In this document: positions 9,106 through 31,629 of the stretch, one piece after another | Layout of the letters: each line of letters opens with the position of its first letter | How positions within the stretch are numbered: position 1 is the stretch's first letter | NCBI GenBank assembly: GCA_010093815.1 | Contig: ML996574.1 | Source: Pseudovirgaria hyperparasitica | Lineage: Eukaryota | Direction: 5' to 3' (one strand) | DNA length: 64,000 bases | Notes under the pieces: generated by a model | Database searches by the model: none | What the model saw: the letters and a program-made list of their open reading frames with translations, nothing else | Told to the model about the DNA's origin: nothing | Made by a program: the position numbers and the translations under genes

Positions 9106-11715
9106 ATGCCAACCAGTTCGATTCGCAATTCCTCGACCTCCACCTCGTCCCCCGTCTCATCTACTCCGCGCTCCTTCCTCTCCCGCCTTGCGCCCTCGTT
9201 TGCCTCCAAGACTCGCTCCTCCGCCGAATTCGATATCCAGCTAGACGATCCACATCGCCAATATGCCCCCGGTGACGCCGTGACAGGGACTGTGACCCTG
9301 AAGGTCTTGAAGCCATTGCGCATAACACATCTGGTCATATCGCTACATGGCTATGTGCAGGTGTACAAAAATCCGAATACCCCGGGGGACGGCTACCGGG
9401 CCCACAACCCGTCGATAGGCTCCGGCAAGGGTCCGAAGAAGGCGGGATACTACGGGAATGGGTTCGCGACCCTGTTTGAGGAAGAGACTGTCCTGTGTGG
9501 CGATGGCAGCATGCAAAAGGGCATCTTCAAGTTCCAATTCTCACTCGACTTTCCCTCCAAAACCTTGCCCAGCAGTATCGATGTAGGTGCTTGTCGCCAT
9601 TTATATTCTGGGAAACTGTGGTTGCTGATGCTTGGCTAGTTCGAACGTGGGACCATATCATACATGCTGACTGCAACCCTCACACGACCAACAAGCATAT
9701 CGCCGACCAGCACGAGGGAGCTGAGGGTATTTCTGATTGAGAACATTGATATTGGGCCCATCAGCGAGCCGAAGCCGCGAAAGATATCCCTGGAACCGCG
9801 AGCTGCCAAGTCGAAACCAAGGCAGCCTAAGAAAAGACCCCCGGCCGCCAAAGCACCAGAGACTGGAGACGCAGCATCCACTTCAAAGGATAGTCGTGTG
9901 GGCGAGTTGAATATTGGTGCGAAAGAAGACCTGGAGTCGCCTCGCAGTCCGGCGGCAAGCGATGTCAGTTTTGAGACCCAGCCAAGCACGACAACAGGCT
10001 CAGGGGAAGATCCTGGCACTTCATCTGGCTCCGGGTGGCAGGGCAGTGGGGAGTTGAAGAGTGCAGGACTGACACCTATCAAGAAGCAACCAATCACTGC
10101 GACAATCACCTTGCTCAAAGCTGGATTCTTGCGCGGCGATACAATACAACTCACAGTGAACGTGACGCACACAAAATATATGAAGAGTCTCCACGGGATA
10201 ATCGTGACGCTCTATCGGCAAGCTCGGGTCGACATGCATCCAGCGCTCCCAGTCATCACTACAAAGGACGGCAAGATGAAGGCTGAAGAATACTTTCCGC
10301 GTTCAAAGACTGGACTTGGTGGCCTGTCATTGTCGAATTCCGGATCAACTCACGTGTTTCGCAAAGACTTGTCGCAGTCGTTTGCGCCCTTGATCATTGA
10401 CCCCAAGACTCTGACTGCTGATGTAAAGGCGTCTGTCCGGGTGCCCGAGGAAGCCTTTCCCTCGATAACGAATGTTCCCGGTGCTATGATCACGTTCAAA
10501 TACTACGTCGAGGTTGTCGTTGATCTACAGGCAAAACTGGCGAGCCTGGGGCGCTTTCTTCCAAACTCGGGAATGATGAATATTCCAAATGGTTACGAGG
10601 ACAATTCTGGTATCCGGCCCGAGGTCAACGGACCTGGCATGTTCTCTGCTTGGGGTGGGAATTTTATTGATACCACCCAGGTCCGGAGAGACAAGAGCGT
10701 CGTGGCCTGTGTGTTTGGGATCATTGTCGGCACAAGGGACAGCGAAAGGAGGAAGAATAAGGGGAAACAGCCCACTGTTCAGCCTCCTGTAGTGGACGGA
10801 CCACAAGCTCAACCTGTTCAGAATGGCAACGGGTATGAGCAGGGAGAGTATCACCACTATGATGAGTCTCAATATTACGACTACGGGCATCCCCCGGACC
10901 GAAACATCGATCATCACGATCACTATTACGGGTTCGAGAATCAGTATGACGGGCACGAGAATCATCAGTATGATGCGCGATATGGTTACTACCCCGAGCA
11001 CCAATACGACATGTCGCATCCTCACGGGTATCGTCTTCCACATCTTGCTGTACAAGACGAGTCCCACCTTACAGACAAGGAGCGGATACGCAGAGCTGAG
11101 CAACGGCTGCTGCCTTCTGAACCGCCAGCGGAAGGTAACGGTGAATCTGCAGCTTGTGCACACGCTCCATCGGCACCGCTTCTGACGGAAGACGAAGACC
11201 TCCTTTTTGCGCCTGCCCCTCGTACAAGGTCGCACGCAAACAGTAATGCCTCCACTATCCCACCTCCCTCTCCCTCGTTTCTCAGCGCAGGTCTATCCGC
11301 TCCACCCGTGCCGTCGGCACCCCTTCCATCACCACGTCCTTTGCGGGCCCCTGCGCCAGTGTATACGTCGTCACCCGCACATGATGAGGCGTCCTCGTCA
11401 CGTGTGCTCGCCGCAGGTCCGGCTGCATCAGACGACAAGCAAGAGCTCCAGCGCCGGCGACTACAAGCCGAGCAGAGCGCTCCCCCGGCTTTCGACCCGA
11501 ACTCGTCCAACGGTCCCGACGCCTCCGCCATGACGGAGGAGGACGAACAGGACGCGATTCCCACTGCACCTGATCTCGCAGACTTGCAGCTCGGGGACGA
11601 TGCGCATGATACCGGACTACCGTATGGCGAAGGAGCATCGTCACACCACGATCCACGGGCTCATGTGCAGACTACTCCGCTGCTGCCTGCCTACAGGGAG
11701 ACACGGGCTTCTTGA
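9106..11715 (+). CDS. palF: pH-response arrestin-like protein PalF/Rim8
   Basis: FDIQLDDPHRQY..GD.V.G, LPSSID|FERGTISYMLTATLTRPT across intron 9583-9639, EEYFPRSKTGLGGLSLS, DDKQELQRRRL, C-terminal LPAY. Confidence 0.93.
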
Positions 11716-12841: not shown

Positions 12842-13040
12842 TGTTAAGGGTGAACCCTGGGTATTCTTGACGTAGGCGCACCTACGCCTGCGCTATCCCT
12901 GTTCTACTAAGCGAGGCTAAGCGAGCCCCTTCTTACTAGCGCGCACTCCGCCCTTTACCTTAAGGAAGCCGAGTAGACTTCTACTCCCTCCCTTATCGAA
13001 CTTACTATATCCTATAAATACTCTTACGTCTGTGTATACG

Positions 13041-14275
13041 TGCCGCCAAGTTCAATTCAGAAGAGGGACCAGACCTTGCCTTGTAAGCGCATCACACGAT
13101 GGCGAGGGGCGTACCCCTCGCCATTCTAACTCTGGCACAGCTTCGCATTACAAGCCTTGAAGGATGAACGTAATTGTTAGCCGTATCGTCGCAAGTGGGG
13201 CACTTATCTACACTTTATCATCTGCGAGGATCGCGCATTTGTATACGGTGGGCAGTCGGTCGACTTACTACATAGGATCCACGAGCACCATGCGGTACTA
13301 GGCCGTCTATAACTGAAAGGGGATACTGGCCGAGAGCCACACTATGCCAAGTGGAGTGAAGCACAGAGTAAACCTGGATTTACGCATTTCTGGGTCGTCA
13401 TTGCAGTCCAGAAGCTCACAGGATACCACGAAATCGATAGACGCGCCTTGAATGTACTCGAGCATCTAACTATCCTATATGTACAAGGCTACCAACAAAC
13501 ATACCTTGATAAAGACTGGCCAGTTGACATGTCCCGTATCGCGCCATGCGGTCTAAACGTCAAAATCGCCTTAGGGCAGAATCTCTGGCCTACTAATTTT
13601 TCGCATATCCCGAAAGAGGCCGACAACGCAAAGTTTCAAGAATGGAAAAGAAACGCAGCTCAAGGTGGGAAGAGCACCGCAGAGAGGAAACGGCAGGCCA
13701 TTGCAGAAAGGTTCGGATATCACGAACCGGTGAAGCTTGCCGTTAAGTCTGGGCACAACAAGCATACGAAAGTAATGAACCATGCAAGCCTCCGGCTTAT
13801 ATTCTTTACTGCTGAGCATGAAGATCTTGCCAACGAAGAGTTCATTGATGTGTTCTTTGAGACTACAAACCAGGGTGAAGTGCACCCGAATAGCATCGCC
13901 CCAAATGCTATAGTAGGCACGGATATCGCTGCTCGTCTAGCGATAAGACTCCCGGATCGAATCCATGATGACGGCACTACGGAAGCTCGATACATCAAAG
14001 ACAGTAACAGCGGCGAAGCATTTACAAAAACGTGTAATTCTCTCGCAGATATACTGACGGGAGAAGGTGACCCGAGTAAGTATATCGAAGAGAAGGTTCC
14101 ACGTCGCAGGGTCCCGGCAAACAGACTATTACAAGTCGGGGATTCAACCTACACTAACGATGATGGAAATCTTATACCCAAGGTGGTACAGAATAAGAAG
14201 GGCGAAGGTAGAAAGAGAGATAATCTCGTGCTCGCGAGGAAGGAGGAAAAAGAAGCATCTAAGAGTAACACATAG
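13041..14275 (+). pseudogene. GIY-YIG-type endonuclease-domain gene, 5' truncated, two in-frame stops (copy 1)
   Basis: Intron 13083-13140 (GTAAGC...CTAAC...CAG); frame from 13142 reads KWGTYLHFIICEDRAFVYGGQSVDLLHRIHEH...HY...LNVLE...GLNV; stops TAG 13178 and TAA 13310. Confidence 0.72.
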
Positions 14276-14689
14276 ATTGCAATTGAAACGGCTTCATTAT
14301 GGGAAGGCGCGTATGTGTTTATCTAATGAAGATGCTTTTAAGGCTACAGAATCTACAGTATATATGCACTAGTCTAACATTTTCGCCACCTTTCTACTTG
14401 TAACCAATTAATACCTTGTGTACGGGCGACTCGGCCACGACCATCAAGGCATTGTTCGCTATTGTGACGTGCTAGATAATATGATTATCCTATAAGTTAT
14501 ATAAGAAATATCTATCTAGTAATATATCTATTAAGTTAATTAATAGTTCGAAGAAGAGTTGGTCATGAAGCATATTATTTACTATCTAGTCTACGGTTAG
14601 TTATCTTATATTAACCGACCGCCTAGTAGCTATCATCTATATTATATATACAGAGTCCTTGTAGTAATCTCAATCTAGGTCACGACCTT

Positions 14690-16520
14690 CGCGAGCAAAT
14701 AACAGAGCCCCTTCCTTGCAAGCAACTTCGATCCTGAGTATAGGAATGTTGCCGCTCGGTATATTTGGATGTGAACTTCTTCAAAGAGCAAAACCAAGGT
14801 CTTCCAAAGGCTGAGAATGAAGGTCCAGCGACCAGTACGCACCTATTCGAGGTGTTGGACCAGCCTAAGTATGGCTCCGAACTCTTTGTCACCTTACGGT
14901 ATCAGTACGTCTGGGTGGACGGTGATTGGGAATTTGAGACCCGTCACCACGTTCTCCAGCATTCAATTGAGCCGTGACAATATCATTACTGGAGATGATG
15001 GAATTAGCATAGGATACAAAATCGTTGACAATGACAGTTGCGAACAATACACACACATTTATTCCCATCTATACTGGAACTGGTCAGAGCCGAGCAGGCC
15101 CATGCGGAAGAAGTGAGGGAAGATACTATATTCAACTACCAAGCGCCTTCAATACATCTTCTTCAAATCGCCTACAACGGCCACTTTTGCGGATACAATG
15201 TCATGGTTGATCAGGATTTGAGTCCTGAACATGCACAGCTGAAGGCTCTTCTCAGCGGGCCATGCAAGCTTTACATCCTTAATCTCGGGTTCGAGTTGGA
15301 CAAAGAACTCCAGAAGATCGATATGGAGCTTGGCCAACGCTTCAACCCCCTTGATGCTTGGTACCCCAATGGAGAAACGCTTGAGGCTGTAGCAATGCAG
15401 CATACGATTCCCGAAAACAAATGGCCCAAGTATGTACGGGGCCTATAGCCCATCGTGGAACAACAGATTTGCCAACAATACATTTTTATGGGTTTCGGCT
15501 TTGCAGGAGGCTCAGCTGGAAAAACATCAAATCTGAATACGCCGCGGTCCAGCTCTCGATCATCAAACTCTCGGGAGACAGCCACACTTCCTACCTGGGT
15601 ATCTTGTACCCGTCCAAAACCAATCTCCGATACCTACCCAGTGAACATCTCCGTCTGAAGATGAATCCGGACGAGGTATATCCCGAGAATGATTGGGTAT
15701 GTGAGGTTTTGGCAATTCCACCAACATTTGTTCCAGTCGCGGCTGTTGCTATTAAACTTATCCGTCCCCCGAATGAACCCGATATAGATGACTTGGCGCT
15801 GCATGAACTACTCACTATAGATCTGGACCAAGCGCCAAAGACGGTTGACGATGTTTTTGCAACTGTCGAGCGCTCTATCCAGTCTAATGCATCGTTGCAA
15901 AAAGCGTCAATCGAGACCAGAGTAGACGTTAGCGATGGTGTCGGCCAGCAACGCATGCAAAACGGTCCAGAAGTTCACGTTGCGACTTTCACGTTCGAAG
16001 GAAATGTTTTTTTCACGCTAGATCCTGATATCGAGCGTCTTATCCTGGGAAAGGATTCGCATAACCTCCGCCCATGAGACGTCTACGACACGCTGACGGA
16101 AGATAAGCGCCTTCTCGACGAAATGCTTATCAAGGTTCATGGTAAACTAAGCAAAGAGCAAGCAGACGTTCTAACGCAAAGTCTAAAGGTGCCAGCAGGC
16201 CATGTCGTCATCCAGGACTATGTTGGTGCAGGAAAGACATTCCTGTTTCAGATGCTCATGGCTGCCACTCTTGAGATTTCCCGAAAGGTACGGCGCAGCA
16301 GTCCCAGCCCATCCACCGAAGCAACGAGTCCCAAACAGAGCATGGGAAGCAAAAGCAACACCGTATGGTGAGGCGCGAACATCAGCACCTCTACGTTGCA
16401 CCTACCAATGCCTTGGTGGACGACGCCATCAAGTCGACTTACGAGTTCATCGGTTTCCTATCCAGGGGGCACAGAATCAAGCGAGAACCCTGTGTTATCC
16501 GCCTGCTCAACCCTAATTAC
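14690..16520 (+). pseudogene. Upf1/NAM7/DNA2-like SF1 helicase, N-terminal half, with frameshifts and stops
   Basis: LSKEQ (Q motif), VIQDYVGAGKT (Walker A, 16225-16239), LYVAPTNALVD (motif Ia), VIRLL (Ib-like); 5' limit is approximate. Confidence 0.75.
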
Positions 16521-16578
16521 AGATTGCCTTCTTCTTTTACTAACGATCTCTATAATACCAAATGGTATTCCTACTTCA

Positions 16579-17412
16579 CTAAGAGTGTGCTCCGCTTTCC
16601 AATTCCATCTCTGGTGGAAGCGAAAATGGAACGCGATGAATGCCATAACTACAGTCCTCAAGCTGCGCCAGCTCCTTAGGATTATTATAAATACGCGGTA
16701 GAAGTAGCCGGGAGAACGATTTGAACTTTACTTGGTGCTTCACAGCAGCAGCCTCGAATATTGGAGGATAAAATCCAGTACAACCCCAATCGATTAGCCA
16801 AACCTGGTTGCGCGTGTCCAAAATAAGATTTCGAGGGCTAAGATCTCCATGAACGAGGACGAAGTAGGGACACTGTAGTGGTAGAGTATCCGGTAAGGCC
16901 TGCTTAAAATATTTACTTAGGCAGAGTTTCCATTTAATCCACTTCTGGAATATTTCTCTCGTCGGAAACGGTCCTGCGCCATAGTCACTAAACACTATGC
17001 CACAAGATGCTCCTCCACCAATAACGCCTGGATGGTCATTATGTATGGATTGAAGCTGGTTAATCATAGCCGCAACCTGGTCAACCACACTGTCCTGAAG
17101 ACCGGAATTGAGTTCGTCCCAACATGTATCCAGGGAGACACCGTCTATGTAGTCCATGACTATGTAGCCTTCGACTCCAGAATCAGAATATGACGAAGGT
17201 TGATTAATATCAAAGTAACGGTAAACACGAGGTAGTCTCACGTCCGGAAACTTCGTCGTGACATATCTCATCGTCTCGCCTTCTGAGGCTAGAACAGTGG
17301 GCCCAAACTTCATCACCAGCGTTTTAGACAGTCGTACAACTTTCAAACCCCCAAGTGAGTGAAGGACTGGAGCATCTTGGCCATATGCCATGAGTTCCTC
17401 CTTTGGCATCAA
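16579..17412 (-). CDS. Aminoglycoside phosphotransferase (APH)/choline-kinase-like protein
   Basis: Intact 277-aa ORF: VVRLS..LVMK.G, EGETMRYV, IVMDYIDG, HGDLSPRN, IDWG; true start uncertain. Confidence 0.85.
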   Translation of the reverse strand: MMPKEELMAYGQDAPVLHSLGGLKVVRLSKTLVMKFGPTVLASEGETMRYVTTKFPDVRLPRVYRYFDINQPSSYSDSGVEGYIVMDYIDGVSLDTCWDELNSGLQDSVVDQVAAMINQLQSIHNDHPGVIGGGASCGIVFSDYGAGPFPTREIFQKWIKWKLCLSKYFKQALPDTLPLQCPYFVLVHGDLSPRNLILDTRNQVWLIDWGCTGFYPPIFEAAAVKHQVKFKSFSRLLLPRIYNNPKELAQLEDCSYGIHRVPFSLPPEMELESGAHS

Positions 17413-17899
17413 AGCAATATCAAAAGTTGCGCCATCTAGCGGGCATAGAGTCGAACGACTTCGAGCGGCCGGCTATGTTCTTTAGCGTTTTTTTTTTATC
17501 TCAAGCGGTGATCGGGTACTCACATCGACATAGGGAACCCAGGGATCTGGCATTATGCTCGGGCGAGGACTGGACATTGCTCACAGGTATAGAAGTGATA
17601 GGAAACTATGACATGGACCGAATTAAATGGAGGCGTTACTACCCACGAGGCAGCTGGCTAGCGAAGCCTTCGGCCCTTCGCCAGGACTTGACAAGGCTGT
17701 ACACCGAAGTATTAGCGAGCGGCAAAACCGCACAGACCTTGAATCGCCTTCTCGACTACCAGTGCCATGCACTGCGAAGTAGATCTTACGGTATTTCAAA
17801 TATCTGAGATTGCCTAGACGTTACCTCTGCATTTCCTCTGAGGGAATATGAGGCACAGAGATTGCCTGTGCGACGAACCCTCCCCACTTCGATTGGTAG

Positions 17900-18640
17900 A
17901 TACCCAATTAGGTATCTTATACCAGAGTTCCTATAAATTATATATAGCTATCCTATTAGAATAGATAGTAAGTAGGTACTTCTAATAAATATAATAGAAC
18001 AAAAGAATCCTTCGGAAGTACTTAGAAGTACTTAGAAGTGCTATATCTTTTTTAATGTATATTGTCAGGCACGTGGCCTGCTAGTTGATTCTACATGTGT
18101 GCAGCAGTCGTATATAAGCAGTGTGCTCCACCCTTGAAGCAGTAGCTTCAAGATTCGGTCCTTTTGGTGTAGTTGGTTGGTGCGTGGAGCCCGCCTTCTT
18201 ACATATATTATTTATTAGAAGTAGATATATCTATTACAGTTTCTATATATTTATAGTTAGAGTCTATCTATATCTAGCTTAGGCGGTAGTATTATATTCT
18301 ATAGCTTATATATTTAGTAGTAAGGGTAAGATTAAGCATAGACCTATCTTTATTCTATTTATACTTTCTCTAAGTAATTTACTCTATATATATAAGAAGA
18401 TATAGAAAGTTATAGTACTATATATATAGTTCCCTTACTTAGAGTTCTTCTTTTATAATAGTTAGACCTCTCTACTATCTATAGTAGAGGTTAAAGTTAC
18501 TAAGGAGAATATATTATTCTAGTATTATAGTACTCTTAAGTATATTATCTAGTATTATAGTACTCTTAAGTATATTATCTAGTATAAGTAATTACTATTA
18601 GTTATAGATATTATAGATATAAAGAGAATCTATACGTAAG
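17900..18640. mobile_element. AT-rich RIP-like relic with a 30-bp tandem repeat (about 18510-18587)
   Basis: Extreme TpA enrichment; TATATTATCTAGTATTATAGTACTCTTAAG repeated about 2.5 times. Confidence 0.7.
18063..18203 (+). mobile_element. Solo LTR (141 bp) with 5-bp target-site duplication
   Basis: TGTCAG...CTTACA termini, internal TATATAAG, TATAT on both sides (18058-18062 and 18204-18208). Confidence 0.75.
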
Positions 18641-18801
18641 CAGAGATGAAGCGATCTTGTAGCCTTACTAACATGATTCATCGTAGTAGCGATGACCGCT
18701 TCGCCCAACCTATGAATGGTAGTATAGACGTTAGAGTCAGAATCAGGGGAACCAGGAGCGATTTGCGTTTGAAAAGGACGATGTGGCGGAAAATGGAGAG
18801 C

Positions 18802-19578
18802 TTATCCGTAGCTACTACAAGGCATTAGTGATAGATGCGGAATCAACGATTCTAAAAATATACCTTCTAGCTTTATGTCTTGGAGCGCTTCACTGATAGT
18901 CTCATAATCCTGACTCCAACATTTCAGGATCGTATTACGAAGGGCGGGAATAACTGTCACATCCGGGAAGCGGCTTGCCTCGAAATAGGCACTTATTTGG
19001 TCGTCACTCACACTCGCATAAGGCTTCGATCCGGTCATCAACTCATACACCGTAGAGCCAAGGGCGAACAGCTCAGTCTTCGCGGAGATGTCTGTCCCAG
19101 GAAGTTCATGACTAGTCTCATAACAGACAAGCGGTGGGCACCCATCAATCGACGAACCAGCAAAGTCGCCTAGCTTGACGTTCAGATTATGGTCGAGGAA
19201 TACGTTATTACACGAGATGTCGCCATGGAGCACTCCTCTTGAGTGGACATATTGCACAGCATCGAAGATCTGCTCCGCCCATCGAAGCTTCAAGTGAAGC
19301 GGAATCCGCGTCTGTCGTCCGATATATTGCCGGATGGATGTTTCTCGTGCAAATTGTAGGACAATCGCATTGTCCAGCACGCCAAAATAGCGAACGATGC
19401 CTTGATGGTCGTGGCCGAGTCGCTCGTAGACAAGCTTCTCCCGGTCTAAAAAATGCGAATCCCAGGGTTGGCAGAACTTTATGACGGCATCGAGACGTGC
19501 AACGATCGCTGTTGTTCCGGCGCCAACTAAGTCTCCGCCACCGAGACCCCTTGGCCATTGTATATCACACTGTTGCAT
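18802..19578 (-). CDS. Small Ser/Thr protein kinase-like protein
   Basis: VGAGTTAIV, VIKF, REKLVYERLG, HGDISCNNVFLD, KLGDFAGS; a 3' intron after DIKLE is possible. Confidence 0.85.
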   Translation of the reverse strand: MQQCDIQWPRGLGGGDLVGAGTTAIVARLDAVIKFCQPWDSHFLDREKLVYERLGHDHQGIVRYFGVLDNAIVLQFARETSIRQYIGRQTRIPLHLKLRWAEQIFDAVQYVHSRGVLHGDISCNNVFLDHNLNVKLGDFAGSSIDGCPPLVCYETSHELPGTDISAKTELFALGSTVYELMTGSKPYASVSDDQISAYFEASRFPDVTVIPALRNTILKCWSQDYETISEALQDIKLEGIFLESLIPHLSLMPCSSYG

Positions 19579-19891
19579 TTTCTTCCAACAAGGGTTTCAC
19601 GTAAGATGGATAGGTGAAGGAGGATGGTATCGGTAAATTGTGACAGTGTGCTTGTGGGAGGGAGAGGGGTCGCAAGGAGCGGGAAGTACCCTAGAACCCA
19701 ACAATCTTGGCGTTTCCCATTTTACGCGTGTATCCTTACCTTTATACAAGAGACTACATATTAGATTACTTATATGGACTTGTAGAGGATAATAAGATAT
19801 ACTAGATCCTAAATACTTTTTAAGCTATAAAATCTCTCATTTAGTCTTCTTATATCGACCAAGTTCACGGACGCAAGGCAATCACCAAGAC

Positions 19892-20504
19892 TTAAAGGAC
19901 TTGAGAAGCCGTTTCTCTTTCAATCACCAAACTGTTTATCAGTCTGCGATCCTGCGTACCTTTCTTATGCTGACAACATCTTGGTACTGCAAGAACTTTC
20001 TTCCCCGCATAATCCCGTGGGTTCACAGGAAACAGGAGCACTTCGTTCGCGTACGTCTCTCCATCAGCAAATGGACCTTCATCTTCCTCAAGCTCGACAA
20101 TGTTTATTACGAGTACTTCTGGGTCGAGATCGCCGGCAGGAACAAGATGGTCAAACGTCACCCCATAGTAATCGATATACCTGAGCGCCACCGTAGATCA
20201 GCCTCAAGCTCCTGAACAAGGTGCTTCCACCCACTCTAGCGGTTTTACCCAAGCTAGGTACTCGTCTCGTACTATCGCAATATCGTCGGTTGCTCCATAC
20301 AGAGTCTGGTGTGTAAGGTTTGCTAGCGCTAAACCCCCTTGCTGTGGGAAAGGCGTAATTTTTTCCCACGAAGAGCCCGGTAGCAGCTTTTGTATGGATA
20401 CAAGGACCTTGGATCCGGATTCTCAAAGGCTTTGCAGCGGGGGGCGGATGTAACGGGTGTTGAGGATGGTTGACGCAAGGATGGATATAGAGCTGAAGTG
20501 ACAT
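19892..20504 (-). pseudogene. Fungal hypothetical protein with one frameshift
   Basis: MSLQLYIHPC...RIQGP, frameshift near 20405 to LVSIQKLLP...VRDEYLAWV, intron 20234-20181, then YIDYYGVTFDHLVP...GKKVLAVPRCCQ. Confidence 0.6.
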
Positions 20505-20522
20505 TATGTAGTTTAACTCGAC

Positions 20523-20900
20523 AGTCAGGCTATACCCGTACCACGCACTTTAGTAATTGAACAGATCCAAATATACTTAGGAAGGGCGTTTCTATATTTA
20601 CTTTTAGTACTATTTACTACTTCTATTACTATTATCTCTAATCACTAACCTTTTCTTCTATTTTTTAACTTATTAGCTTCTAGTTTAATAGACTTAGTAT
20701 AAGAGGCCGGGCACTACGTACTAACTTGCTTATAAAGGACTGAACCACAGGTGAGCCACGTGCCGAGCACGTGACTTCTTACAAATAGTTAGTCAGTTAG
20801 TCTAGGAGTAATCTACTTTCTATCTATTATATTAATTATTTTCTTAGCGAGTTTCTTATAAGGCTAGAAACTATAGTTATAAGTAGAGAAGGGGAGGGAG
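20523..20900. mobile_element. Degenerate LTR-like relic plus AT-rich RIP-like DNA
   Basis: Minus strand TGTAAGAAG..GGCACGTGGC..TATAAG..GTGCGTGG shares motifs with the 18063 solo LTR; no TSD visible. Confidence 0.45.
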
Positions 20901-21110
20901 AGTTACTATGCTAAAAAGGGGGTGTTCTTATAGAGGGGGAGGAGAGTTGGATTTAGGGGGGCGGAATTCCAGGGAGGCGGATTTCTTATCTATGATCTGT
21001 TTCCTCTATTTCATCTATTTATATATGCTTCTGTACCATGTTACTTATCTATGCTACATAGGTCCTATACAACAGCCAAGCAAAGCAAAACTAAGAGGCA
21101 TTCAAATGGA

Positions 21111-22455
21111 TCAAAGCTCCGCCAGCCCAGCGATCTGCTGCATATCAAACTCCACCACAGCCCCCGCGCACTTCCGCCCATAGTTTAGCACAGAGAGCGA
21201 ATGACGGCCGCGAAAAGCCCCACTGCGCAATAAATGCGACATATTCCCGACAACAACGAGGCCGTACTGCGTGCGCGTCGGCGCAACGATGATCCGGCTG
21301 TGCTCCTTCATGAAGCCTGGCCGGTCGAATGCGACGATGGTGGTGGCCTGGAGGCGCGGGTCTAGACGCTGGAATGTCTTGCTGGCGAGGGCTTTGTGTG
21401 CAGCGTAGGGGCTGATATGCAGGATGTCGGCGGCGCTGATGCCGGTGCTAAAGCCGGCCGTGGTACTGCGGAGGAGGGCTTTGGCAATGGAGAGCTCGAT
21501 GCGGAGGGAGTCGGTGTTGAGCAGGCTTTTGCTAACGAGTGTCGCGGGGGATGTGGCGGCGTTGATGAAGACGACGTTGTGCGGGCTCGGCAGGTTGAAT
21601 ACGTGCTGAAGGAGGGCGACGTAGCATGGGCCGTTGGGGTCCTTGGGAGGGTCACGCCGGCCAGATGCTTTCATGAGGCCGCCGTAGCAGGCTTTACTGA
21701 TGGGTTTCACAATGGCTTCGCAGGAGCGTTCGGAGGTAAGGAGTTGAGAGTATGCGAAACCGCAGTCCATGAGGCGGGCCATCATCGAGTGGGCTGCGTT
21801 TTCGGCGAAGTTTGCGTTGTCGCGCGTTTGCTTGGTTGAGACGCCTGTCTGGTGCTTGTCGCCGACCATGTAGACAAAGGGCTGCCACTGCGGCGTGAAC
21901 TAGTTCGCATAGATGCCCATCTGGTCTACTTCGGAGAGCTTGTACCCTTCATCGAGGAATATCATGACGGGGAAGATTGTTTCGGCAACTTTTGGCGTGT
22001 TCATGACGTACGGTGTGCCGGCGAGGAACTGGGCGCGGCTCTTGATTTCCATGTATAGGAGGGCGCATCTGTGGTTAAACTCTGCCCAGGAGGCAGGTGT
22101 GGCGGTACCAGCTAGGATTTGATTGCGCAAGGCGCAAAGTCTTTCGTGCCTGGTACCGAATTCAGGAGCCTGCCATTCGAATCGGGGTGGTCCATTTGGA
22201 CAAAGTCCAAGGCTTCAAGAGCGATAAAGTCAATGGTATGCTTGATCATCTTGGCCCGGCATTCCATTGTCTTTAAGCCCAAGGGCCCGCTCTGGCTGTC
22301 TTGGAACGCCTTCTCGACCAGATGCCCGCCTTCGCCGAGCAGATAGCGGTACGCCATATCACCGCTAAGTGCAGCCATTGCGAATGAAGCCATTATTGCC
22401 GACCTAGATGCCTTTTGTGCCTCCAGTCTTTTCTCGAATTTCTGAAATAGCTAAT
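21111..22455 (-). pseudogene. Upf1/NAM7-like SF1 helicase, C-terminal half, degenerate
   Basis: AQFLAGTP, IFLDEG (II), VGDKHQT (III), SMMARL, ISKACYGG, ISPYAAH, GFM..SRIIVAPTRTQYGLVVVGN (VI); one frameshift, one stop, motif V partly deleted. Confidence 0.8.
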
Positions 22456-22606
22456 CTATGGCGATAGAATTCCTTGTCCTTCAGCGCCTTGTCCAAACGC
22501 CGCTCGAGATCTACTATAGTTAACTGAGCAGCCTCCACTTCTCTGGAGACAGCATTCAAATTTAATGCAAGTTCCACCTCTCTGCTCGTGATGAGCCTTA
22601 GTTAGA

Positions 22607-23371
22607 TTACGGTCGCTGCCATCGAGTAATAGCTTGATGGCATACCAGTTCAAGGCTGTAAGACTGAGGAAAGATTTGTCTTGCCCGATTCTTCCAGTCT
22701 ACATGTTTCGAAGGTCTGTCGAAAAGTTTGATATATTCCCAGTGCTCAGGATACCAACCGGCATATTCCCAATCAAGCAAGCCTGTAATCTTCCCATTCT
22801 TTACTAAAATATTATGCTGTGAGAGGTCGCAATGTGAAAAAACGATGCGATGATCAGTGCGAAGTTGTTGGTGTAATGCTTCGAGCACGGGACTCGGGGT
22901 CGTCTGAACAAGGTCACAGTAGAATAGGTTAAAGCTTGCTTCGTCCAAAAAAGGTCCTCCGCTATAATCAGAGTATTGACGTAAATCTCGTGCGGATCCG
23001 TCTGAGCAGGATCCAATACGTCTATTAGTCGATGGAGCAGATCGCATTGTCTCAAGGATTTCTCGTAACTGATTACAAATATGATCTTTCTCGCATTCTG
23101 TCATACTCGGCCATACAAGGTCAAGTCTATCGCCATGAATGTACTCCATCCATAAGCTAGTTTCTCCTTCCCCAGAATCTTTCTGTGCATTATATACCTG
23201 GGGAACAGGTAGGTTAATGTGTGCTGCAAATTCGAGAGCATACTTTTCATCTAATTTAAGTCGTCTGCCCTTCTTTAAAACGACAGATCCAGAATAAAGC
23301 GTAACGGTCCGATCTTGTATCGCGTGGAGTATCGAACTCTCTAGAATTGGATTAGATCTGCCACATTCCAT
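22607..23371 (-). CDS. APH/choline-kinase-like protein
   Basis: Intact 254-aa ORF: EKYALEF..LPVPQVY, MEYIHG, FSHCDLSQHNILV, LLDWEYAGWYPEHWEY. Confidence 0.88.
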   Translation of the reverse strand: MECGRSNPILESSILHAIQDRTVTLYSGSVVLKKGRRLKLDEKYALEFAAHINLPVPQVYNAQKDSGEGETSLWMEYIHGDRLDLVWPSMTECEKDHICNQLREILETMRSAPSTNRRIGSCSDGSARDLRQYSDYSGGPFLDEASFNLFYCDLVQTTPSPVLEALHQQLRTDHRIVFSHCDLSQHNILVKNGKITGLLDWEYAGWYPEHWEYIKLFDRPSKHVDWKNRARQIFPQSYSLELVCHQAITRWQRP

Positions 23372-23690
23372 AACATTCCTATGACGGACTCACTTTGTCC
23401 GCCCACAGCATCATGTCCTTCATCCTGTGCTAGCGCTAGCATATCTTCAACTCAAATTTCCAAGTTTGCGCCGAAATGCCAAATGAATTGGTCAAGGTTC
23501 TCAAGTCAGGGTCTCTCAACTGACTACATTGCAATTGGGTGGATACATACGAGGGGAGCTTGATTCGCGGATGACGTGAGACGATTACGTTATCAGCGCC
23601 GCTACACTATTTCAGGCAAAACCACCTCTCTGCAACGTGACCTCTGCAAGTGCAGCCCGGTCAAAATACAAGTCAAATTTTACCACTTCG

Positions 23691-23915
23691 TTATTTGAGA
23701 CTGCAGGCCAGGGTGAAGTGCACCCAAATAGCATCGCCCCGAATGCAATAGTAGGCACGGATATTACTACTCATTTAGCTATAAGAATCCCGGATCGAAT
23801 TAATGATGACGGCACTAATACTATGGAGGCTCGATATATTAAGGATAGTAACCGCGGCGAAGCTTTTACGAAAACATATAATTCCCTCGCGGACGTACTA
23901 ATGAGAGAAGGTACT
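23691..23915 (+). pseudogene. Fragment (copy 3) of the GIY-YIG gene, C-terminal region
   Basis: FETAGQGEVHPNSIAPNAIVGTDI...EARYIKDSNRGEAFTKTYNSLADVL closely matches 13857-14065. Confidence 0.85.
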
Positions 23916-24180
23916 TAGTTATAATGATGGTCGAAGGAAAGATCCGGGAAAGAGCATGCAGTGAGGAAGGAAGCGAGGGGCTCCTGACAACTCCCCATTG
24001 CTACAACGATTTCTATCCAAGTCACCATCCTGGACGAAGCAGTGCTATTCGAATGCAGCAAGATTCCAAACTTCGTTGTATAGGCTCACATGGTATGGCG
24101 CTCAACGTGCATCAAATTGTCCTTCGTCCTATCAACCTATAATCATTACCTGAGAGGTTGGTATATAAATAGACATCGTA

Positions 24181-25130
24181 CGCTTTCTGCGGTCTTCTTC
24201 CCACCATGAGCTGCGTTCTTCTTCCCACCATGAGCTGCGTTCTTCTTCCCACCATGAGCTGCGTTCTTCTTCCCACCGTGAGCTGCGTTCTTCTTCCCAC
24301 CGTGAGCTGCGTTCTTCTTCCCACCGTGAGCTGCGTTCTTCTTCCCACCGTGAGCTGCGTTCTTCTTCCATTCTTGAAACTTGGGGTCGTCGGGCTCTTT
24401 TGGCATGTGCGGGAAATTGGTGGGCCAGATTCTCTGGCCCAAGGCGATTTTGACGTTCAGCCCGCAGGGTGCGATTTCAAAGCTTGTGATGCGAAGCTGT
24501 GCCAGAGTTAGAATGGCGAGGGGTAACACACCATCGTGTGATGCGCTTACAAGGCAAGGTCTGGTCACTCTTCTGAATTGAACTTAGCGGCAATATCCTC
24601 TCTGAAATGCTGTATGATCACATTAGGGTCACATTGACCAGGCAAAATTGACCCGTATCGCTATTGAGCAGGTTGAATTTTGTCATGGCGCTTTTGCATG
24701 CGAGTAAGCATGTACGTATTGACGTCAACTAGCTTAGGTAGCGCTTTGTCTGGCCAAGGCGGGGTACCCAGTGGAATGTGTGGGTTCATGCTTTGATAAT
24801 CGAGAAGGTTGGGATTTGGCTTCACGATACCGTCGATTGATACATCAGCTCTTAACTCTTCGAATGTGTCTTCGTCATCATCGGCATGAATTGCCAGAAG
24901 CTCTGACGTGGTATTTCCGGTTAGGTATTGGTTAACGGTTAGAGAGCTGTTCGTAATCCGATGTTGGTTGATAGTAGAAGACTGGTCGATAGCAAAACCC
25001 GAATTCACATCAGGAGAGCAGGCAGTTGCGGAAAAAGTGGCTGAGTGGAGAGTAGAGGATATATTCGCCGTAGATGTAGCAAAGCTAGACTTGTCTGATT
25101 TCTTGAGCCCTGACCTCGTTCGTCATGGTC
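24181..25130 (-). pseudogene. Fragment (copy 2) of the GIY-YIG gene: N-terminus, same intron, catalytic core deleted
   Basis: AAKFNSEE.PDLAF|FASQALK with intron 24550-24497 matches 13041-13160, then jumps to IAPCGLNVKIALGQ.WPTNF.H.PKE. Confidence 0.8.
24193..24369. repeat. 24-bp minisatellite, 7 full units (KKNAAHGG on the minus strand)
   Basis: TCTTCTTCCCACCRTGAGCTGCGT x7; three A-variant units followed by four G-variant units. Confidence 0.97.
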
Positions 25131-25247: not shown

Positions 25248-26450
25248 CTATTTAACCGTGGGGACACTAGTCCCCTTTAGGAAGTCGTGTCCCTCACTGT
25301 TAAGGGTGAACCCTGGGTATACTATTGGGTCAATGACCCGGAAGTATCCTCCCGGCGGCAACATGTTCCACCCCTCTCCCTCCCCATACCACAATGTGTG
25401 TGGCCAGGCCCCGTCCGCGCCTCCCTCCTCTCCCATCCTTGCGACGTCGAAGGCCTTGAGCGCTATCGACCACACCTTTGTATAGTCCAAGCAACCAGTC
25501 GCCCACTCCTCCACCCTAGATATCTTTCCCTGGTCCTCCATCCCCTCCACCATCGATCTCATCGACGGGAATCTCAACGGCTGATGTGCCCAATGGCACC
25601 AAACCATGTTCGAGTCTTGTGAGAAAAACGCGAACAGGCCAGCTCCATTGGTGAAAACACCATCGGCGAACAGGAAGGTACCGGCGCCGCTGAGTGCGCG
25701 AATCGGCGGAACAATCAGTGGTACTGTTGTGTATGTGACGTGCGTCATGTTGCAGTGCTCTAGGAGCGCAGCACGGAGCTCGGTGTAGGTATGAATGGGA
25801 TCTGGAGCGGTGTAGACTCGGATTGAAGTTTCCCATTCCATCCAGTGTCTGAGCTCAAGGATATTGTCGGATTCCTCGTCCGTCTCCTCCGACTCAGGGG
25901 TGGTAGCCTCCGGAATGGGTAAGGGGCCAGGAACGAAAGGTGCAAACTCAGCTGTGGTGGGCGTTACCGGACGGTTTTCATTTATAGTGAGAGTTGAGAA
26001 GCTAAGCCGGGGTGCCGTGGGAGTATCTGGGGTGTCTGTAGCTTCTTCGGGCTGCGAGACCGGCTGATCTGAGCTCGTGTCTGAGGGCTCTACTCTCTGG
26101 TTTTGGGGTGGATGCTGGGCCCAGATTGTTCTTGCTTCTGCATGTGATATCGCTTGAACTTGTGGGATAGAGTCGAAGTGTGCGCCTGAGGCTTGAAGAA
26201 GAACGAAGAGACGTTGAGCCACCTGTTCAACCTGCATTGCATGCACAAGCCCTGTGGCCCGCAGAAGTGATGCTTGTTGGGTGGCCATATGCCACCGGGT
26301 CTGACGCAAATCAACAGCGTCCACTGCTACACGGGGAAAGGGAGGCGGAAATGATCGAACAGGGGCTCCAGATCTTGAATATCTTGAGGACAAGCCGGTT
26401 AAAGGTACTGCTTGATTGGGAAACTGTCTGAAAGGAAGTTGGCGATCCAT
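25248..26450 (-). CDS. Hypothetical 400-aa protein of unknown function
   Basis: Uninterrupted ORF; Pro/Thr/Glu-rich middle, then a Trp-rich, globular-looking C-terminal half; no recognised motif. Confidence 0.6.
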   Translation of the reverse strand: MDRQLPFRQFPNQAVPLTGLSSRYSRSGAPVRSFPPPFPRVAVDAVDLRQTRWHMATQQASLLRATGLVHAMQVEQVAQRLFVLLQASGAHFDSIPQVQAISHAEARTIWAQHPPQNQRVEPSDTSSDQPVSQPEEATDTPDTPTAPRLSFSTLTINENRPVTPTTAEFAPFVPGPLPIPEATTPESEETDEESDNILELRHWMEWETSIRVYTAPDPIHTYTELRAALLEHCNMTHVTYTTVPLIVPPIRALSGAGTFLFADGVFTNGAGLFAFFSQDSNMVWCHWAHQPLRFPSMRSMVEGMEDQGKISRVEEWATGCLDYTKVWSIALKAFDVARMGEEGGADGAWPHTLWYGEGEGWNMLPPGGYFRVIDPIVYPGFTLNSEGHDFLKGTSVPTVK

Positions 26451-29866: not shown

Positions 29867-31629
29867 TCATGAAAGGCCGATATCATCACCATCTTCATCA
29901 TCATAACCATCGTCGTCATCAAATCCCCCTTCCAGTTCTCCATCATCGCTCAACCCTTCAAAGCGCATGAACTTCTCATCTTTACTCTCTGTCCCCCATT
30001 CTACTACAAACCCGTCCTGCACCTCACAATCTTTCAGCACAGTCTTCTCATCAGCCTTTGCAGGCCCGCCCTCGACCTTGCATCTTCGTCCGAGGATACA
30101 CCCCGTGAGCTGGCAGTTCTCGCCTACCTCAGCCCCATCCATCAGCAAGCATCGCATCAATCGCGCGCCGGACCCGATCTTACACCCGGCACCGATAACG
30201 CTCTCTTTGACATTGCATTTCTCTTCGACGGTGACGTTCTCCGCGACAAGACATGTCTCGCGCGCAACTGTGCATCGCTGCGGGATTGCCTCTTCGTGTG
30301 CAATCTTGGCGATATGCGCGAAGGGCGACGCGTCCTTACCTGCCTCCGCAATCGAGGGTAGTTTCGCAAGGCGGAGGGAGATGCTGAGGAGTAGGTGCGC
30401 AGTGTCTACACGGCGGATCAGGGGCAAAGCGGAGTCTTGCGGCTGAACGTAGGCAAGGATAGGGGGGATTGTTACTGAGGACTTTTGTAGTGTCTGAGGG
30501 GCGCCAGAGACGCGGGATGCAAAAGATTTCGGAGCGACAGGGGCGTCTTGGGAAGGGATCCAGGTACTGATGAGGTTCGTGAGGTCGACCTGTTCAGAAA
30601 TCGGGCCGCCGGCGCCGAAGCTTTCTTCTCCATCAGCGCTGCTGGGACGGTGGAATATGTTGTCCAAACCGAGCTTCTCACTTAGACCATCTTGCCATCC
30701 CGCTTTAGCCCACCAGCCGAGAACGTCTTCAGCGATACTGTCAAACTTCTCGTTGTTTTTAATCATTTCAAGGACCCAAAAGGGGAGGAAGTAAATGTGG
30801 GCGTCACGGTAGGTCGTGAGCATTCGTGTTTTGGCGTGTTTCTTGACGAGAGCATGCCTTATCGGGAGGCATTTCTTTTCTTCTATAATGTCTTTGAGGG
30901 TATCTGTCGGAAGGGTATAGACTAAATTCGCGAGATCTTGCCGGAGAGATGCTGACGGTGATGCTACAAGGGGCTTCGGTAGCGGGGCAGTTGCTATGAA
31001 GTCTGTCTCCTCCCCTTTGATGCTTCCTTCTCCTTTAGTGTTATACCATACCCCTAGACCCCCTCTTCTGCCATGTTTCTCACCACCATAGCCCATTGGC
31101 ATTCCTGACCCTCCAGTCGCGGCGCCTAGTCCGGCCTCTTGGACCATCCATTGCTCCACAAGATCGCTCCCATCAAGCTCACATACCAAGTCGCATGGGA
31201 GTACTATGAAGTCGCTTGTTATGGCAGCTTGTACCTCAGGTAGCCGAAACATCTCAGCGGTTCCAGTAGTCAGTGTCAGGTCCTTGGGTGCTAGTATATC
31301 GGGCTTATGCGATATGAGAGAGGTGAGGTGAGGGTTTTGCGAAAGAGCCGCGCTTATGGCAGCTTCAGACTCGGGTGGGGTTACAAGAGTGATATCTGAG
31401 AATCACGTCAGCGTTCTTCGGCCAGAGAAGTTCTTCAGGTCCATATTGCACCTGTAACCCCCATGCGTATGCACCATTCTATGGAGTACCACACCATGGG
31501 CCGATTCGCGACTGGCACCAAGGCCTTGGGAAAGTCTTCTGGACTTGAAGTGAAGGTATTAAGGGAAGCACCTGGTCCGCATAATATCAAAGCCTGGAAG
31601 CCCGGCGAGGGCAGAGTCGCATGCGGCAT
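29867..31629 (-). CDS. GCD1: Translation initiation factor eIF2B gamma subunit
   Basis: FQALILCGPG..PKALVPVANRPMVWY, intron 31451-31396, LPCDL, DAHIYF, C-terminal hexapeptide beta-helix and acidic tail. Confidence 0.92.

Follow-up and report, generated by a model that had tools for sequence, protein, structure and literature searches.

How does a Upf1-like helicase gene come to lie in two pieces on opposite strands, with other genes between them? The question is raised by a rearranged gene island of approximately 17 kb within the window (the whole 64-kb stretch of DNA analysed, which is ascomycete DNA). Besides the helicase, the island holds a kinase fragment at 14415-14528, a truncated bZIP gene, a second split gene and a Plavaka end. 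A preliminary description, made from the letters of the sequence alone, had proposed an inversion with a 5-bp microhomology. The gene is indeed split, but the junction proposed for it is wrong. The interval around the island runs from a putative arrestin gene (9106-11715) to a putative eIF2B-gamma-like gene (29867-31252). Among the titles and beginnings of abstracts listed by a literature search largely without subscription papers, none describes the locus. The features that bear on the question are the following.

14837 to about 16505, + strand: N-part of the Upf1-like SF1 helicase pseudogene, with N-terminal extension and motifs Q, I, Ia and Ib (family profile positions 95-481); the reading frame is shifted at least twice (near 15444 and 16367) and interrupted by a TGA at 16075
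16506-16578: left-breakpoint interval, including AGATT at 16521-16525; the helicase is not continued, and the match to a kinase paralogue on C13 ends at 16593
16579-17647, - strand: APH-fold kinase 1, spliced (intron 17473-17523; PF01636 E 2.3e-14; CT..AC joint in X3 and X4)
17932-18059, - strand: copy of the left end (TIR) of a 22-kb Plavaka family, RIP-type mutated (80% nt over 128 nt to the C26 and C10 element ends)
18060-18650: AT-rich repeat remnants with many genome copies (40 scored matches at 75-85%; GC 0.23 at 18200-18599)
18560-19646, - strand: protein kinase gene, spliced (intron 18815-18863; PF07714 E 6.8e-19; joint in X3 and X4)
19892-20650, - strand: small spliced gene, ORF19892 (joints 20178/20233 and 20591/20650)
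21111-22345, - strand: C-part of the helicase pseudogene, motifs II-VI (AAA_12 42.4 bits, Pfam cut-off 27; family profile cE 3.1e-50); a frameshift near 22155, a TAG at 21902 and motif V shortened by about 15 residues
22346-22383 (about 22335-22384 at its widest): right-breakpoint interval, bounded by the bZIP homology on one side and the helicase homology on the other
22384-22583, - strand: 3'-terminal part of a bZIP transcription-factor gene, comprising the zipper, the stop codon and the beginning of the 3' UTR, with four paralogues in the same genome
22607-23400, - strand: APH-fold kinase 2, spliced (intron 23341-23393; PF01636 E 3.5e-17; joint in X3 and X4)
23679-24592: second split gene, paralogue of the gene at 13041-14275, its N-part on the - strand (24592-24183) and its C-part on the + strand (23679-23940)

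Both sets of motifs assigned by the preliminary description were found, I, Ia and Ib on the + strand and II-VI on the - strand, and so were its two APH kinases. The extent of the N-half had been set at 14690 to 16520. Its homology is traceable only from about 14837, where 14837-14910 matches the N-terminus of a transposon helicase in the same genome (equalled in 3 and 15 of 3000 null draws), and its motifs end at the VIRL(L) stretch, 16494-16508. The N-half matches the Upf1-like family profile with a cE of 1.2e-18 and residues 405-625 of the own-genome transposon helicase with an E of 5.4e-8; with Pfam, AAA_11 reached 13.2 bits for one piece and gave no match for P0002. The C-half aligns to residues 707-961 of the same element helicase. 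Its homology is sure up to approximately 22290 (p 5e-5) and weak to approximately 22335-22345 (p 0.049, uncorrected for three gap choices).

Frameshift-tolerant profile alignment of the re-inverted DNA was collinear over positions 95-923 of 969. In this alignment we found DYVGAGKT and FLDEG, which we take to be the Walker A motif and motif II, respectively. Across the whole gene there are at least three real frameshifts, two stops and the motif V deletion of about 15 residues, and there is no single open frame. An explanation of the frameshifts as introns was rejected: no + strand splice joints were seen in the contigs, and the insert after motif I is common to the N-half and the own-genome element helicase. 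Judged by its sequence the gene is dead, and it is predicted to encode no working helicase.

A Upf1-like helicase in two opposite-strand halves is borne out, both halves matching one fungal family collinearly and without overlap (405-625 versus 707-961 on the nearest relative). Of the 21 homologues retrieved with the C-half, 8 gave a second match, to the + strand N-half, at E<1, and 4 of these reached E<1e-3; P0005 is collinear with both halves over residues 75-499 and 597-905. The preliminary description had cautioned that the GC-richer C-half might come from a second paralogue. In separate trees both halves take the same place, each grouping as sister of the transposon helicases of this genome (with supports of 91/91 and 96/94 and end branches of 1.45 and 1.62), though the relatives are only 20-30% identical, the tree program carries a warning that RIP-biased rows may give long-branch joins, and close paralogues are beyond the resolution of these trees. 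The C-half is indeed GC-richer: GC3 amounts to 303 of 410 codons (0.74) compared with 245 of 465 (0.53) in the N-half, a difference (overall p 1e-10) that exceeds the rise along the transposon helicase (from 0.48 to 0.54). The change point, however, lies at approximately 16410 (95% set 16204-16425) and hence inside the N-half, whose last codons (33 of 47) are like the C-half (301 of 408, p 0.60) and unlike the upstream N-part (209 of 413, p 0.013). Since the shift precedes the break, the caveat is largely removed. Two paralogous genes truncated independently on opposite strands would fit the multi-copy state of the helicase family in this genome, two transposon families included, but they would have to be cut at nearly complementary sites with zero overlap. 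Neither a residual N-part upstream of the C-half nor a residual C-part downstream of the N-half was detected, and searches of the genome gave no second close copy of either half. We therefore consider this origin improbable. An assembly error, for which the repeats flanking the region are the sole argument we found, has a negligible probability: contigs from four runs of two studies cross both ends without a strand change. The X1 contigs 13067-17297 and 18571-24221, which may stem from the source sample, span both ends, as do the X3 contigs 16168-17297 and 20990-23340 of the other study with 0 differing letters; as DNA contigs and, from the second study, spliced contigs both cross the ends, the arrangement is no artefact of assembly. 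The uninverted allele was not seen in the four runs of the two samples, which are probably one strain because no differing letters are listed in the helicase.

Where, then, was the gene cut? The right breakpoint lies at approximately 22335-22384, because the bZIP homology runs through AATCT down to 22384. The bZIP fragment is about 78-84% identical to its paralogues in nucleotides (79-80% in one comparison with the four copies of this genome) and 57-65% in amino acids, with the same stop position. In an ungapped comparison with the paralogue L060, whose ORF matches bZIP_2 (E 2.7e-7), 102 of 126 nucleotides are identical upstream of the pentamer and 54 of 69 downstream, followed by 11 of 34. 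The preliminary description had invoked a clean, microhomology-driven inversion between AGATT at 16521-16525 and AATCT at 22453-22457. Both pentamers exist, the left one falls within the allowed interval, and the distant-homologue profile tolerates the resulting join (5.5 bits; best join 17.2). The right pentamer, however, is interior to the contiguous bZIP fragment, so that the 5-bp microhomology, the breakpoints and the VIRLLNPNY(x)ISYF join one base short of frame are wrong. The helicase does not start at 22455, as the end of the bZIP gene occupies 22583-22384, and the ISYFRKFE read there is not one frame: the frame that begins at 22455 gives ISYFRNSRKD, and KFE belongs to the following frame. 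Moreover, when 1000 pairs of 30-nt windows were drawn at random from the island, 382 had an inverted match of at least 5 bases, so that such a match is at chance level. This model is accordingly highly improbable. A breakpoint scan in which 2849 pairs were scored on a profile built from 15 distant homologues had its optimum at 16506-16509 / 22450-22447 (3-bp GCT match, 17.2 bits); this join was likewise rejected, because it runs through the bZIP fragment in the wrong frame. A short microhomology junction inferred from the letters alone can thus mislead on a breakpoint, and so can a profile scan that relies on distant homologues.

On the left side, no continuation of the helicase was detected in any frame of 16506-16590 (five registers, best p 0.13), and a shifted frame of 16506-16578 that places GIP where the family has GNP/GEP did not reach significance (p 0.13). 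The inverted match of 6 bp, CTGCTC, at the edges of the allowed intervals (16503-16508 / 22342-22337) is at chance level for such windows, brings no gain against the two element helicases or the bZIP 3' UTR, needs a deletion of approximately 27 codons and is unproven. On the bZIP 3' UTR, a test for the reciprocal junction came out negative (102 observed, against 104-130 in 40 null draws). Compared with the nearest relatives, the join is short of about 30-45 codons.

The split is most simply explained by an inversion of about 5.8 kb. We infer, with a probability of roughly 0.6, that one Upf1-like gene was cut just behind motif Ib and that the block from approximately 16.5 kb to 22.35 kb was inverted, likely by end joining. 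Two double-strand breaks repaired in this way would be the most likely cause; the missing codons would have been lost or have decayed at the join, and the decay of the gene may have come before or after. The flip would have made the bZIP fragment the neighbour of the C-half and brought the 3' end of APH kinase 1 up to the N-half. Upon re-inversion the two APH kinases would converge, as had been proposed, with the bZIP fragment in between. The data require the turning of the C-half only. One gene may have been rearranged in several steps: the flip would then have involved the 1.3-kb C-half alone, or a smaller block, and the kinases, the repeats and the bZIP piece would have arrived by separate insertion or shuffling, for which transposons may have been responsible. 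The other rearranged pieces (the second split gene, the kinase fragment at 14415-14528, the truncated bZIP and the Plavaka end inside the block) and the failure to rebuild the reciprocal junction speak for such a course. Against it, more events are required, all four genes within the block are co-oriented with the C-half, and the transposon end, the one TIR-like match in the 64-kb window, lies at neither breakpoint, being interior to the block; we consider it rather unlikely. The second split gene is split in the same manner as the helicase; it matches 12901-14450 at 81-91% by blastn and also by tblastx. For 19895-20191, in the small spliced gene, no Pfam family was found, and the C13 paralogue of APH kinase 1 is 73% identical in nucleotides.

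The spliced contigs weakly suggest that the C-half now rides as a long 3' tail of the APH kinase 2 transcript and that the APH kinase 1 transcript runs antisense into the N-half, weakly because contigs reveal neither strand nor single transcripts. X3 and X4 were judged to be spliced RNA solely from the CT..AC joints, and their lack of coverage over 14670-15937 is no evidence on expression.

Taken alone, the locus is an ordinary pseudogene rearrangement, a dead accessory gene broken locally, and of little weight. As a low-copy relative unscrambled by RIP, it helps to place the helicase cargo of giant Plavaka elements among the fungal Upf1-like helicases. We tentatively propose, as a possibility that we ourselves consider doubtful, that the split gene comes from a helicase lineage that moves between host chromosomes and giant Plavaka transposons, of which it would be a relic untouched by RIP, and that the 17-kb island is a decayed block of mobile cargo in which short inversions have broken genes repeatedly (two cases lie within 10 kb), making chimeric transcripts such as APH kinase, bZIP piece and helicase C-half.

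The gene resembles fungal Upf1-like SF1B helicases (AAA_11, AAA_12) such as KAK7538279.1 (Phyllosticta) and KAI9846082.1 (Sclerophora amabilis) in domain order, motifs and long N-terminal extension, but is only 21-34% identical to them and differs in being split and frameshifted, with stops and the motif V deletion. The CH (zinc-binding) and 1B domains of the UPF1/NAM7 orthologues of nonsense-mediated decay were not detected, no Pfam family being found at E 0.1 in 15038-15445 or P0002. Word-index searches of longer proteins yielded nothing at E 0.001 for the C-half (2522 candidates) or the N-half (3352 candidates), and in metagenomes the C-half picked out 3 loci among 32 candidates (34-35% over 74-92 residues), none of which matched the family profile.

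Both halves have as their nearest relative in the trees the helicase carried by the 22-kb, RIP-killed Plavaka transposon of the same genome. It has the insert behind motif I in common with the window gene, as well as the stretches DDAI and TPYVMN, but is only approximately 25% identical, and the window gene is single copy and bears no RIP signature. The element encodes a Plavaka transposase and has CA..TG ends, with TA flanking both sides of one copy. These ends and flanks fit PlavakaB of the CMCT clade, for which PMC12730594 gives CATCA..TGATG ends and a 2-3 bp TSD. TET/JBP cargo is also named in PMC12730594. The island is unlike such an element, holding only the 128-nt end: no transposase or other element gene was found in it and no TIR pair around the helicase. 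Island frames of at least 50 aa compared with five element stretches matched only at the helicase, a repeat end and one marginal site (E 0.008), and among the 12 island frames scanned with Pfam none matched the DUF3435 tyrosine recombinase of Starships.

Gene-breaking inversions occur in fungal accessory regions; our literature search listed no paper on such a case. In contrast to such inversions, the breakpoints described here carry neither a repeat pair nor a proven microhomology, but the locus is like them in being a pseudogene split by a probable short inversion amid repeats and gene fragments.

The features discussed here lie in the window as follows:

13041-14275, plus strand: gene with a split paralogue
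about 14837-16505, plus strand: N-half of the helicase
16579-17647, minus strand: APH-fold kinase APH-1
17932-18059: Plavaka transposon end
about 22345-21111, minus strand: C-half of the helicase
22384-22583, minus strand: 3′ end of a bZIP gene
22607-23400, minus strand: APH-fold kinase APH-2
24592-24183 (minus strand) and 23679-23940 (plus strand): the split paralogue

A full-library protein search with the C-half yielded 22 proteins, one of them the window's own; the remaining 21 share 23-34% identity with it, and all 21 contain AAA_11 and AAA_12. When searched against the window, all 21 matched the minus-strand half, and 8 also matched the N-half at E<1, four of these at E<1e-3. On a profile from 15 homologues the plus strand occupies positions 182-481 and the minus strand positions 570-909, and the re-inverted DNA, aligned with frameshift tolerance as the preliminary description had proposed, is collinear over positions 95 to 923 of 969. 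As that description held, parts of one Upf1-like helicase lie on opposite strands; judged by homology, both are real members of one family. The gene is assigned on the same grounds to the fungal Upf1-like SF1B helicases, in whose manner it once worked; the assignment does not extend to UPF1 orthology. The alignment also indicates frameshifts near 15444, 16367, and 22155, stop codons at 16075 and 21902, and, in the C-half, a motif V shortened by about 15 residues. The helicase gene is dead, whichever its orientation.

In the genome assembly, which comprises 35.4 Mb in 122 contigs, the window corresponds to C10:968509-1032508. It contains GT-AG introns, and among three repeat copies 2088 of the 2105 variable columns are C/T or A/G, other differences being almost absent, a combination that we take to be the mark of an ascomycete with RIP. 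The split helicase sits in an island of kinases, gene fragments, and repeat remnants at approximately 12.3-29 kb. Near both island ends there is a 26-bp direct repeat (25/26; 12842-12867 and 25298-25323), which contains the near-palindrome AGGGTGAACCCT and shows higher read depth at both sites. A kinase fragment (14415-14528), 82% identical to 19434-19321, ends at a repeat (14528-14654) with copies on C21 and C9. A 400-codon ORF without Pfam match (25248-26450, minus strand) is covered by spliced-sample contigs.

Four sequencing runs cover the stretch, X1 and X2 possibly representing the source sample, and X3 and X4, with six CT..AC joints corresponding to minus-strand introns, another study. 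Assembly error is excluded as the cause of the arrangement, since contigs of X1, X2, and also X3 (16168-17297 and 20990-23340, with zero differing letters) span both ends. As no strand change was among the joints listed for the four runs, no uninverted allele was seen in them. One spliced-sample contig, 20990-23340, begins in APH-2, crosses the bZIP piece and the entire C-half, and ends 120 nt beyond the stop codon of the latter; it is possibly a read-through transcript.

The proposed junction, a 5-bp microhomology between AGATT (16521-16525) and AATCT (22453-22457), has to be abandoned. The minus-strand frame across 22453-22457 has four paralogues in the same genome, one of them a bZIP gene, with 79-80% DNA identity over 164-200 nt. 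Two of these, L060 and L061, align ungapped through the pentamer (102/126 and 67/85 nt before it, 54/69 and 57/69 after). The stop codon position is equal in fragment and paralogues, and past 22384 identity drops to 11-12 of 34. Because the paralogues match across the pentamer with the same stop, the supposed C-half start ISYFRKFE consists of off-frame readings of the bZIP end, 'ISYF' and, in the next frame, 'KFE'. The breakpoint from our own homologue-profile scan was wrong likewise, having read the bZIP end off-frame. Moreover, when 1000 pairs of windows were drawn at random for each length, inverted matches of at least 5 bases occurred in 182 pairs at 20 nt, 382 at 30 nt, and 897 at 60 nt. 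The four paralogues (L058-L061) lie on the small contigs C36, C43, C49, and C116; two seem cut 5′ close to the cut point of the window's copy, and L058 adjoins what by eye appears to be a Tc1/IS630-type transposase.

Compared with the Plavaka-element helicase, the N-half ends at the motif Ib arginine (16502); it is continued by no frame of 16506-16590 (best p 0.13), where APH-1 reaches its end at 16579. The homology of the C-half is sure as far as about 22290 (p 5e-5); from there to 22335-22345 it is weak (p 0.049, uncorrected). Together with the bZIP end, these limits place the breakpoints within 16506-16578 and about 22335-22384. The halves share no overlapping part, and of the 57 columns between the two anchor arginines approximately 30-45 are accounted for by neither. 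Joining the sequences at the reciprocal junction did not restore a bZIP 3′ UTR.

The GC-richer C-half had raised the possibility of two paralogues, and GC3 is indeed unequal between the halves (p 1e-10). However, the shift falls inside the N-half: the best change point, about 16410 (95% set 16204-16425), surpasses the break by 3.6 log-likelihood units, and the final 47 N-half codons resemble the C-half. Separate 17-row trees, for which homologues possessing both parts were limited to the 12 longest, place each half as sister of the transposon helicases (support 91/91 and 96/94) with end branches of similar length; earlier trees with 13 such homologues and one element copy gave 99 and 90. According to a tool warning, long, RIP-biased rows may join falsely in such trees. 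The two halves very probably represent one gene.

The simplest account of this one gene on opposite strands would be that a block of about 5.8 kb was inverted once, to which we assign a probability of roughly 60%; this part of the preliminary description stood without its junction. All four genes of the block are oriented as the C-half. Since nothing but the C-half must have turned, a multi-step history is a less likely alternative. Neither a repeat pair nor a transposon end was found at the breakpoints, the Plavaka end lying within the block, away from them; the single inversion is therefore best put down to two breaks repaired by end joining, during which sequence would have been lost. The island is unstable, as the gene at 13041-14275 has a paralogue that is likewise split across opposite strands, with 120-135 nt gone at the join. 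Within this paralogue there are a 24-bp tandem array (24187-24369) and a spliced intron (24497-24550). The whole finding is an ordinary pseudogene rearrangement, its junction now corrected.

A literature search including PMC12730594 and PMC5751038 gave no account of the locus in the texts covered. The nearest relatives of the helicase are 17 mutated copies in the same genome (21-31% identity to the C-half). Most of those examined are part of a 22-kb repeat, 92-93% identical between copies, which encodes a Plavaka transposase (E 1.7e-35) and bears terminal inverted repeats:

C26:65408-87520, C10:460553-482727, C4:1122974-1144622, and others: 22-kb RIP-mutated Plavaka transposon with Upf1-like helicase and terminal inverted repeats

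C4 and C15 also carry a second helicase family with about 65% similarity at the DNA level. The split helicase of the window does not lie inside an intact Plavaka element.
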